IMG/VR virus record: IMGVR_UViG_2667527965_000003
Span: 1-48,868 of that record
From: a virus
Taxonomy: Duplodnaviria > Heunggongvirae > Uroviricota > Caudoviricetes
Length of the DNA stretch: 48,868 nt
Reading direction: 5' to 3' (one strand)
Numbering within the stretch: position 1 is the first letter of the stretch; each line of letters starts with the position of its first letter. This document shows, one piece after another, positions 639 to 48,592 of the stretch. The translations under genes were made by a program, and so were the position numbers. The notes below the pieces were generated by a model. The model did not search any database and was not told where the DNA came from. It saw only the letters and a list, made by a program, of their open reading frames with translations.

Positions 639-667
639 CACGAAATCCCACGAAAATTACTCGAAAT
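639..667 (+). promoter_or_regulatory. Putative integrase arm-type binding sites
   Basis: Three direct repeats CACGAAAT / CACGAAAA / CTCGAAAT at 10-11 bp spacing between att core and int; similar CACGAATT / CTCGAATA at 47630-47659 next to attR. Confidence 0.3.
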
Positions 668-12994: not shown

Positions 12995-13548
12995 CAATCA
13001 ACAAACAGGCACTGCGGAGTAAGGCGCGCTCAGCAAGTGCTGGCGAATGGATTAAAGAGTCCGGCGACGGGTGGGAGGCTATCTGCAGCACTAACGACCA
13101 GGCCAACGGTAACTTCATCATCGCGCATTTTGAAGGCCCGGATGCGAAGGCCAACCGTGAGTTTGCGCAGGCTGCCCACCCGGATGTCGTGCTGGCGCTG
13201 CTGGATGAGCTGGAAGCCGCAGAGCGTCGTAATGCTGAGCTTGAAGATCTTCTGGAGGCTGAGGTTCGGTTGTGGACACAACGTTACGACTGCGCAAATA
13301 GCCGCAGAGAAGCCGCAGAGAAGCGCGTGGCTGAACTCTCGGCGAATAACGATTCGGCCGTTAATGCTCTACTTAAAGCGCGGCGCAGAACAGTCACCCT
13401 TCCAACGGGTTATTCAGTTCGGCCTGGGCATCCCATCAACGAAACAGAGCGCAGCGTCATGATCCCAAAAGATGGTGGGGCTTGGCTGTCTCGGTTCGAT
13501 GTTGAGCATGCTCTTCGGGCCGCTGGCATCAGCATCAAGGGGGAGTAG
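12991..13548 (+). CDS. Ead/Ea22-like protein
   Basis: 185 aa with central coiled-coil-like segment (DVVLALLDELEAAERRNAELEDLLEAE); family resemblance from memory only. Confidence 0.4.
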   Translation: MTINKQALRSKARSASAGEWIKESGDGWEAICSTNDQANGNFIIAHFEGPDAKANREFAQAAHPDVVLALLDELEAAERRNAELEDLLEAEVRLWTQRYDCANSRREAAEKRVAELSANNDSAVNALLKARRRTVTLPTGYSVRPGHPINETERSVMIPKDGGAWLSRFDVEHALRAAGISIKGE

Positions 13549-18163: not shown

Positions 18164-18183
18164 TACTGTTTATACATACAGTA
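18164..18183. promoter_or_regulatory. LexA (SOS) box
   Basis: TACTGTTTATACATACAGTA fits CTGT-N8-ACAG with AT-rich spacer (LexA consensus TACTGTATATATATACAGTA). Confidence 0.65.
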
Positions 18184-47013: not shown

Positions 47014-47033
47014 TACTGTATATATAAACAGTA
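47014..47033. promoter_or_regulatory. LexA (SOS) box overlapping a promoter
   Basis: TACTGTATATATAAACAGTA, one mismatch from consensus; TTGATC -35-like hexamer 17 bp upstream; ATG of next gene 19 bp downstream. Confidence 0.7.
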
Positions 47034-47051: not shown

Positions 47052-47291
47052 ATGCCACGCAGAATCGATATTGAGGGTGCTTTTCACACAGCCATTAAAC
47101 ACGAGTCCAACGGGCGCCGTACGGTGACTACTGAGGACTTCGTGAAGCACCTGGCCCGCGCTAACTGGAACTGGTCGCTTAAAGAGGCGAACGACTGGAT
47201 CGAGAGCCACGTTTCTACCTTTAAGGATGTTTCGACCTGTGAGGGCCAGGCGCGCACCTTCATGCTCTACAACCCGAACGGAGGCCTGTGA
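47052..47291 (+). CDS. DinI-like small protein, SOS-regulated (tentative)
   Basis: 79 aa; AAGGAGGGG RBS; directly downstream of LexA box; N-terminus MPRRIDIEG and ANDWIESH segment loosely resemble DinI (MRIEVTI... / ADDWFVSE). Confidence 0.4.
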   Translation: MPRRIDIEGAFHTAIKHESNGRRTVTTEDFVKHLARANWNWSLKEANDWIESHVSTFKDVSTCEGQARTFMLYNPNGGL

Positions 47292-47292
47292 C

Positions 47293-47610
47293 ATGGGCTT
47301 TCCATCTCCAGCTGCTGATTACGTTTCTCAGCGAATGACCCCGGAGCTCATTTGCGGCGTCAGTATTGATACCCGCATTCTTGAAACATCATCCGGTTTC
47401 GCATTAATCGAACCGGTTACCCGGTTAGTGCAAGGTCAGGTTCTGCTGATTTTGTCCGGCGGCAGGACGCAGTTTGTGAAACTCAGGGGCAGGGCATTAA
47501 TCACTGATGATGGTGAAGCGATCGAGGGGGAGGCGGCGGAGGAAGTTGAGGTTCTGGGGCGAGTGACGTTCTTCATCAACAGTGCGCTGCAGGATGACAG
47601 AATTGTGTGA
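47293..47610 (+). CDS. UmuD'-like (S24-fold) protein starting at the UmuD cleavage-product N-terminus
   Basis: 105 aa; begins MGFPSPAADYVSQR, matching the UmuD' N-terminus GFPSPAADYVEQR; C-terminal region (GQVLLILSGGRTQFVKLRGRALI) aligns loosely with UmuD; no umuC-like gene adjacent. Confidence 0.5.
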   Translation: MGFPSPAADYVSQRMTPELICGVSIDTRILETSSGFALIEPVTRLVQGQVLLILSGGRTQFVKLRGRALITDDGEAIEGEAAEEVEVLGRVTFFINSALQDDRIV

Positions 47611-47629: not shown

Positions 47630-47659
47630 CACGAATTTCACTCGTCGCCCACTCGAATA
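47630..47659 (+). promoter_or_regulatory. Putative integrase arm-type sites near attR
   Basis: CACGAATT and CTCGAATA direct repeats resembling the repeats at 639-667. Confidence 0.25.
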
Positions 47660-47768
47660 ATAAAGTAACGGTTTGATCTTGAAAGAACGCAATGGTAAGT
47701 GTTGTAACGCTTATTTTGGGGTGTTTTCGATGGTAACTGCTTGATAGATAACGAAGAACAGAGCTTGA

Positions 47769-47802
47769 GCCGTAAACAGGAATCGTGTTCGGTCTCTTTT
47801 TA
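47769..47802. repeat. attR: right copy of 34-bp imperfect direct repeat
   Basis: CCGTAAACAGGAATCGTGTTCGGTCTCTTTTTAT; 31/34 identical to 572-605. Confidence 0.65.
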
Positions 47803-47932
47803 TCTGTTAAAAGCCAGAAGCATTTCCTTCGCTGACTTTATAGTCAACCATAACACACACTCTACTGTCTGAGTCCAGCATTTTTTAACATTCTTGTTAA
47901 GATTATGTGATCTTTAGCGCGGGAGGAAAATA

Positions 47933-48592
47933 TTGATGAAACAGCCTGCGCCCGTTTATCAGAGAATTGCGGGTCATCAATGGCGACATATCTGGCTTTC
48001 TGGCGATATACACGGTTGTCTTGAGCAGTTGCGCCGCAAATTATGGCATTGTCGTTTTGATCCGTGGCGAGATTTACTTATCTCAGTGGGAGACGTTATC
48101 GATCGTGGGCCGCAAAGTTTACGTTGTCTGCAGTTACTGGAACAACATTGGGTTCGTGCGGTAAGAGGCAATCATGAACAGATGGCGATGGATGCGCTGG
48201 CATCCCAGCAGATGTCTTTATGGTTGATGAATGGCGGCGACTGTTTTATTGCGCTGGCAGATAATCAACAGAAACAAGCGAAAACGGCGCTGGGGAAATG
48301 TCAGCATTTGCCCTTTATTCTTGAAGTACACAGTCGCACCGGCAAGCATGTTATTGCTCATGCCGATTATCCAGATGATGTTTATGAATGGCAAAAGGAC
48401 GTCGATTTGCATCAGGTCTTGTGGAGCCGCTCGCGATTAAGTGAACGCCAAAAAGTGCAGGGAATTACAGGTGCTGATCATTTCTGGTTTGGTCATACAC
48501 CGTTGCGACATCGCGTGGATATTGGCAACCTGCATTATATTGATACCGGTGCTGTCTTTGGGGGCGAACTGACTCTTGTGCAATTGCAATAA
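47933..48592 (+). CDS. pphA: Serine/threonine protein phosphatase 1 (host gene)
   Basis: 219 aa with metallophosphatase motifs (GDIHGC, GDVIDRG, GNHE); recognised as E. coli-type PphA. Confidence 0.8.
   Translation: MMKQPAPVYQRIAGHQWRHIWLSGDIHGCLEQLRRKLWHCRFDPWRDLLISVGDVIDRGPQSLRCLQLLEQHWVRAVRGNHEQMAMDALASQQMSLWLMNGGDCFIALADNQQKQAKTALGKCQHLPFILEVHSRTGKHVIAHADYPDDVYEWQKDVDLHQVLWSRSRLSERQKVQGITGADHFWFGHTPLRHRVDIGNLHYIDTGAVFGGELTLVQLQ

Follow-up and report, generated by a model that had tools for sequence, protein, structure and literature searches.

Phased direct repeats beside the attachment cores of an Escherichia coli prophage at sdsR are probable arm-type sites of its lambda-family integrase

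An Escherichia coli prophage of ~47 kb, inserted in the small-RNA gene sdsR/ryeB at its 3′ end, in the yebY-pphA interval, carries short direct repeats beside both of its attachment (att) cores, which raises the question of what, if anything, recognises them. The window, meaning the whole stretch of DNA analysed (48,868 nucleotides), begins within yebY (1-342) and, past the prophage, runs on beyond pphA (47933-48592). An earlier reading of the letters alone (the sequence-only reading) had suggested that five octamers, three between attL and the integrase gene (int) and two left of attR, are arm-type sites of the lambda kind. The comparisons presented here indicate that the repeats are very probably the arm-type binding sites of the prophage's own lambda-family integrase (Int). 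Arm sites are expected for any integrase of this family, and the basic picture is unchanged. Lambda-type arm sites are already known; what is added here, and is moderately interesting, is a constant core together with arm-site classes that appear to diversify with one hairpin residue of Int.

The attachment cores and the genes around them are located as follows.

463-607, − strand: SraC/RyeA (Rfam), on the strand opposite SdsR/RyeB
504-603, + strand: sdsR/ryeB small-RNA gene (Rfam RF00111, 116 bits)
578-605, no strand: attL core, a 28-bp block repeated at attR with one mismatch (A589)
581-587, no strand: AGGAATC, candidate 7-bp overlap region, in the SdsR terminator loop
681-1766, − strand: int, lambda-family tyrosine integrase of 361 aa with an N-terminal arm-binding domain (homology, Pfam, predicted fold)
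1735-2007, − strand: xis, excisionase of the lambda type by Pfam (PF07825) and by annotation in relatives
47776-47803, no strand: attR core, the 28-bp block repeated at attL, with G47787 opposite A589

Both att cores beside which the repeats had been placed are thus real. The attL core overlaps the 3′ end of SdsR/RyeB and the 5′ part of SraC/RyeA, and the 3′ terminator hairpin of sdsR, ACCGAATAC-AGGAATC-GTATTCGGT, is the bacterial attachment site. The core sequence begins ACAGGAATCGTATTCGGTCT... and differs from the motif of the arm repeats. The unoccupied site of E. coli ATCC 8739 reads ...ggaccgaatacaggaatcgtGttcggtctctttttatctg and has a G at the mismatch position, so the G in attR is bacterial and A589 in attL is phage-derived, which in turn places strand exchange within 578-588, to the left of 589. 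AGGAATC lies inside this interval, flanked by the inverted stems ACCGAATAC and GTATTCGGT. We infer that AGGAATC is the overlap region, with the crossover in or beside it, and that the stems, being natural inverted repeats, could serve as core-type sites. A consequence of integration is that a G.U pair of the SdsR terminator stem becomes A-U (589/47787; L264), and the 5′ part of RyeA is swapped out as well. Phage attachment at the 3′ end of ryeB has been published: PhiW104 of Salmonella DT104, at the ryeA/ryeB insertion hot spot, uses the last 23 bp of the gene (Balbontin et al. 2008, cited through PMC7380047) and has its target in common with the prophage in the window.

The integrase belongs to the family in which arm sites are found. 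It aligned to lambda Int over residues 8-358 (1z1b; E = 8e-67), its N-terminus matched the isolated arm-binding domain of lambda Int (1kjk), and Pfam assigned it Arm-DNA-bind_1 (PF09003; 33.2 bits, cutoff 22) as well as central and catalytic domains (PF22022 and PF00589). The integrases of lambda, 434 and HK022 share 38-40% identity with it (HK022, 40%). An AlphaFold model of residues 1-75, built from the single sequence and of moderate confidence (mean pLDDT 70; block means of 79-85 over residues 11-50), contained three strands (16-19, 24-28 and 35-39) and one helix (43-59). The eight best PDB matches to the model were all lambda Int chains (1kjk/2wcc among them), the top two being the N-terminal domain alone and in complex with P′2 DNA. 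As in lambda, the protein would be heterobivalent, with an equivalent N-terminal fold, and a xis gene of the lambda type overlaps the 5′ end of int.

The predicted arm-type sites, all on the + strand, are given below.

639-646, + strand: P′1 site, CACGAAAT (sequence and conserved position)
649-656, + strand: P′2 site, CACGAAAA (sequence and conserved position)
660-667, + strand: P′3 site, CTCGAAAT (ending 13 bp short of the int stop codon)
47630-47637, + strand: P-arm site a, CACGAATT (146 bp ahead of the core block at attR)
47641-47648, + strand: P-arm site b, CTCGTCGC (degenerate; most relatives have a CGAA site here)
47652-47659, + strand: P-arm site c, CTCGAATA (sequence and conserved position)

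All five octamers of the sequence-only reading were found at their places and on one strand. The left-hand repeats, which sit between the attL core (578-605) and the int stop codon (681), had been described as phased at about 10 bp, and the measured spacings of 10 and 11 bp bear this out. The right-hand pair is separated by 22 bp; with the degenerate position at 47641, which has an identical degenerate form in two relatives (L165 and L265), it becomes a three-position cluster with 11-bp phasing. Both arms of the window have the motif C-N-CGAA-W (at 639, 649 and 660, and at 47630, 47641 in degenerate form, and 47652). The conserved part of the motif is CGAA(A/T), and the bases 5′ of it are variable.

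Within the window the pattern CWCGAAWW is not enriched overall, with 19 matches against 12.7 ± 3.4 expected, a count that was reached in 7 of 100 shuffles. Only two same-strand clusters occur among the 19 matches, each beside an att core. A motif-free scan of the 48.9 kb for three copies with 10-11-bp phasing and at least six of eight columns identical returned two loci, 638/639 and 13293, against a mean of 0.3 in Markov-1 random sequences generated from the window. The second locus (13293-13322) consists of CGCAAATA, CGCAGAGA and CGCAGAGA with 10/11-bp spacing. By the chance estimate made within the window, the right-hand pair taken alone was not significant. These statistics are by themselves modest and suggestive; the comparative evidence that follows, rather than the window statistics, is decisive.

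Relatives were drawn from E. coli genomes, a phage collection searched with tblastn, a set of one genome per species (Int identity 39-99%) and the viral contigs of IMG/VR; a megablast of the int/attL region against the phage collection returned zero matches. Nearly all relatives are located at the sdsR terminator, and nearly all have, 3′ of int, three repeats sharing TTTCG (CGAAA in the orientation of the window) with 10-11-bp phasing. The P′ arms were dereplicated to 32 sequences that differ by at least 20% and come from Int homologues of 39-99% identity. Counted in 10-bp bins after the core, CGAA is present 32, 32 and 31 times in the three that cover +40 to +69 and is absent from every bin outside that range, so that it is kept at 95 of the 96 P′ positions. 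The P arms are represented by 30 dereplicated sequences left of the core, taken from attR or attP forms. Here the bins spanning −149 to −120 contain CGAA 28, 20 and 22 times and no other bin has it more than three times; the reverse motif TTCG is flat, without a peak. The P-arm sites of the window, including the degenerate middle one, occupy the three conserved positions. The comparison of related attP regions that had been proposed as a check on the arm-site reading therefore came out in its favour: the repeats are conserved in number, in phase and in distance from the core, and the DNA surrounding them has diverged.

When the P arm of the window was compared with E. coli genomes by blastn a single relative was found. 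In E. coli 98232 (NZ_CP173446.1), similarity to the P arm of the window starts exactly at site a. The P arm of E. coli 1506 (L262) is otherwise different, yet it has CCCGAATT, CCCGACGA and CACGAAAC at equal phasing. These two relatives are remnants of 8-10 kb, one of them broken by IS1, and both retain attL, int, xis and attR with the arm sites. Several IMG/VR loci (L152/L205, L217/L209, L222 and L225) are tandem prophages at the sdsR site, whose junctions are hybrid: through the core, one phage's P arm is linked to the P′ arm of a second phage that belongs to another arm-site class. Several IMG/VR loci that resemble attP are such junctions and were left out as same-phage P/P′ pairs. The Actinobacillus phage vB_Apl-pPE4 (L003, PP818812; 1140-1240) matches the enterobacterial sdsR terminator exactly in its attP core and has a P′ arm identical to those of Shigella flexneri and E. 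coli prophages (L047 and L048); the host assignment of this record looks doubtful.

The att regions have further elements around the arm sites.

603-615, − strand: IHF-like site (H′-like), TATGTCTTTGATT, with one mismatch to YAANNNNTTGATW
668-685, no strand: degenerate core-like repeat, gtccATATaCtGTCTaaa (ATTCGGTCT in relatives)
47666-47678, − strand: IHF-like site beside the P-arm cluster, TAACGGTTTGATC, with one mismatch
47734-47746, − strand: IHF-like site some 45 bp ahead of the core, TAACTGCTTGATA, matching YAANNNNTTGATW without mismatch

Of 47 dereplicated P′ arms, most have a match to the IHF consensus at +0-19 past the core pattern. Sixteen of the 30 dereplicated P arms have, in the 10-bp bin of the site at 47666-47678, a counterpart with no more than one mismatch, and the site at 47734-47746 is likewise matched in 16 of the 30, seven of the matches being perfect. 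[quoted passage not shown] The segment between the two IHF-like sites of the P arm (47679-47733) contains aatGGTAAGTGTTG, which is related to GTAACGGTTTGA (47665) and GGTAACTGCTTGA (47732), and in several relatives GGTAA is repeated near −110, −80 and −70; these aatGGTAAGTGTTG/GGTAA elements are candidate Xis sites.

In relatives, a direct repeat of the right half of the core, ATTCGGTCT, lies just outside P′3; in the sense of int it reads TAAAAGACCGAATAT, and it overlaps the int stop. Its ATTCGG is found at a fixed position (+70-79) in 17 of the 32 dereplicated P′ arms (relatives L018-L060). The repeat might be a relic or a further core-type site for Int, and may represent an additional, undescribed element of attP.

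The right prophage end also holds the following.

47014-47033: perfect LexA (SOS) box, TACTGTATATATAAACAGTA, preceding a two-gene operon
47052-47291: first gene of the operon, phrog_3893, unknown function
47293-47610: second gene of the operon, phrog_3469, ‘UmuD-like’

Pfam searches with the two right-end open reading frames found no family. A second, near-consensus LexA box is present at 18164-18183. The operon with its LexA box may be an SOS-controlled induction or antirepressor module.

The proposal that position and phasing fit lambda-type arm sites was compared with lambda attP as read from NC_001416, and the geometry agrees. Measured from the centre of AGGAATC, the likely overlap, the P′ sites of the window start at 55, 65 and 76 bp, and P′1, P′2 and P′3 of lambda start at 55, 65 and 75 bp from the centre of its overlap; taking AGGAATC as the overlap thus puts the P′ sites at the distances of lambda. 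Also in common with lambda are three direct P′ sites with 10-11-bp phasing, a putative IHF site between these and the core, and P-arm sites at a distance of about 125-150 bp from the core, adjoined by another putative IHF site. In both, the last P′ site abuts the int stop: P′3 of lambda overlaps it, and the last site of the window ends 13 bp before it. For lambda, published distances of the arm sites from the core are about 100 bp and about 50 bp (PMC9791396), and the sites for its bending proteins lie between arm and core (PMC4880445).

There are also differences. The recognition sequence in the window is C-N-CGAA-W, unlike the (C/A)AGTCACTAT of lambda, and the window sites do not match the lambda/HK022 arm consensus (CACGAAAT and similar against AGGTCACTAT and similar in lambda). 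In lambda the P arm consists of P1, H1 and then an inverted P2, whereas that of the window is a tandem three-position cluster oriented throughout as the P′ sites are. Unlike in lambda, attB is the terminator of a small-RNA gene, and many relatives of the window prophage have the extra core-like repeat outside P′3.

Lambda and HK022 have arm-type sites in common and differ in core specificity. The integrases at sdsR resemble that pair in being related proteins with modular recognition of arm and core, and show the reverse pattern: the core is shared, and the arm-site classes diversify together with a hairpin of the N-terminal domain. In the literature that could be searched, no description of these arm sites was found.

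The diversification is seen in the two to three bases 5′ of CGAA, which vary between phages and are usually alike in the three P′ sites of one phage. Residue 22 of Int is predicted to lie in the turn between strands 1 and 2 (a β-hairpin), where the alignment with lambda Int has the RNNG turn. Sorted by the identity of this residue, the two bases immediately 5′ of CGAA in the P′ sites are as follows, the counts ignoring phylogeny and about 21 proteins lying outside the D/E classes.

Residue 22 R: TC in 21 of 21 P′ sites
Residue 22 Y: CA in 14 of 15 P′ sites
Residue 22 Q and V: AT in 12 of 12 P′ sites
Residue 22 S: TC in 6 of 6 P′ sites
Residue 22 G: CT in 4 of 6 P′ sites
Residue 22 E: CT in 3 of 3 P′ sites
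Residue 22 D (the class of the window, 70 proteins): mixed CA, CC and CT (90, 49 and 71 sites)

The site classes are scattered on the tree of the C-terminal part of Int. Two relatives (L030 and L032) are 92% identical in the catalytic part and have the hairpins RNRNA and RKGKS, respectively; the P′ sites of the former have GTC three times, against one AAT and two ACT in the latter. Members of the Y class, conversely, are as little as 52% identical in the catalytic part. The P-arm sites obey the rule for residue 22 less strictly than the P′ sites do. One prophage has GTCCGAA in all three P′ sites but CTCGAAAT/CCCGAGAA/TTCGAAAT in the P arm, and this discordance in the variable half implies either that the base 5′ of CGAA is not strictly required or that P sites are bound weakly or cooperatively. 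The whole octamer, with its 5′ C-N-C, was considered as the recognition unit in both arms and rejected, as the P-arm sites of some phages keep only CGA(A).

[quoted passage not shown] We tentatively propose that the sdsR-targeting integrases share one core and possess at least five to six arm-site specificities (TTCG followed by TG, AG, GG, GAC, GAA or ATA), which may be set largely by residue 22 (Y, G, D/E, R, S or Q/V). If true, this would keep phages that compete for the same site, or lie there in tandem, from assembling recombination complexes on each other's arms.

The same data bear on whether the repeats bind some protein other than Int, namely the excisionase or a different accessory or host factor. 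[quoted passage not shown] The motif is present in both arms, however, whereas the Xis sites of lambda are confined to the P arm (PMC4880445). Moreover, it is residue 22 of Int that partitions with site class, and the DNA-binding region of Xis does not: this region is identical in L034 and L055, whose sites have CCT three times and TAT three times, respectively, and the Xis variant TLQRWAR is found with four site classes. Binding by Xis or another such protein in place of Int is therefore considered very unlikely.

It could also be argued that no sequence-specific protein is involved and that the repeats are phased A-tracts which bend the arms intrinsically, since each unit has AAA(A/T) and the 10-11-bp phasing is the geometry of static curvature. 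Bending alone, however, would constrain neither the CG within the invariant CGAA, which is retained at 95/96 positions, nor the flanking bases, which vary in concert and track a residue of Int; this explanation is accordingly judged highly improbable, although curvature could contribute alongside binding by Int. That the repeats are a chance similarity in AT-rich intergenic DNA, which the unenriched CWCGAAWW count (19 against 12.7 expected) and the non-significant right-hand pair would allow, is close to inconceivable given that dozens of diverged relatives keep them in position, number and phase and that the locus is one of two found by an unbiased scan for triple repeats against 0.3 expected.

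With the repeats read as arm-type sites of Int, the excised attP would begin on its left with three phased C-N-CGAA-W sites (47630, 47641 in degenerate form, and 47652) and an IHF site. About 55 bp that possibly hold Xis sites, a second IHF site and the core would follow, and then a third IHF site, the three phased sites at 639, 649 and 660 and the end of int. [quoted passage not shown] IHF, joined by Xis in excision, would bend the arms in such a way that a single Int molecule bridges arm and core, and the complexes assembled in this way would carry out insertion of the phage at the sdsR terminator or its excision. Of this scheme, the sites with their conservation and geometry, the domains of Int, the IHF-consensus matches and the covariation of protein with DNA are observed, whereas binding by Int, the pattern of bridging, the roles of the individual sites in integration as against excision and the exact overlap are inferred.

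The arm-site result confirms the boundaries of the prophage and defines a complete, lambda-like attP of about 260 bp, formed by joining 47630-47803 to 606-667. The sdsR family offers many natural integrases with one core and one geometry, differing arm sites and an apparent one-residue correlate of the difference, and is convenient for studying how the arm-binding domain, with its three-stranded sheet, reads DNA. The arm-site classes could aid the design of orthogonal integrase/attP pairs, and they bear on how prophages coexist in tandem at the sdsR hot spot.
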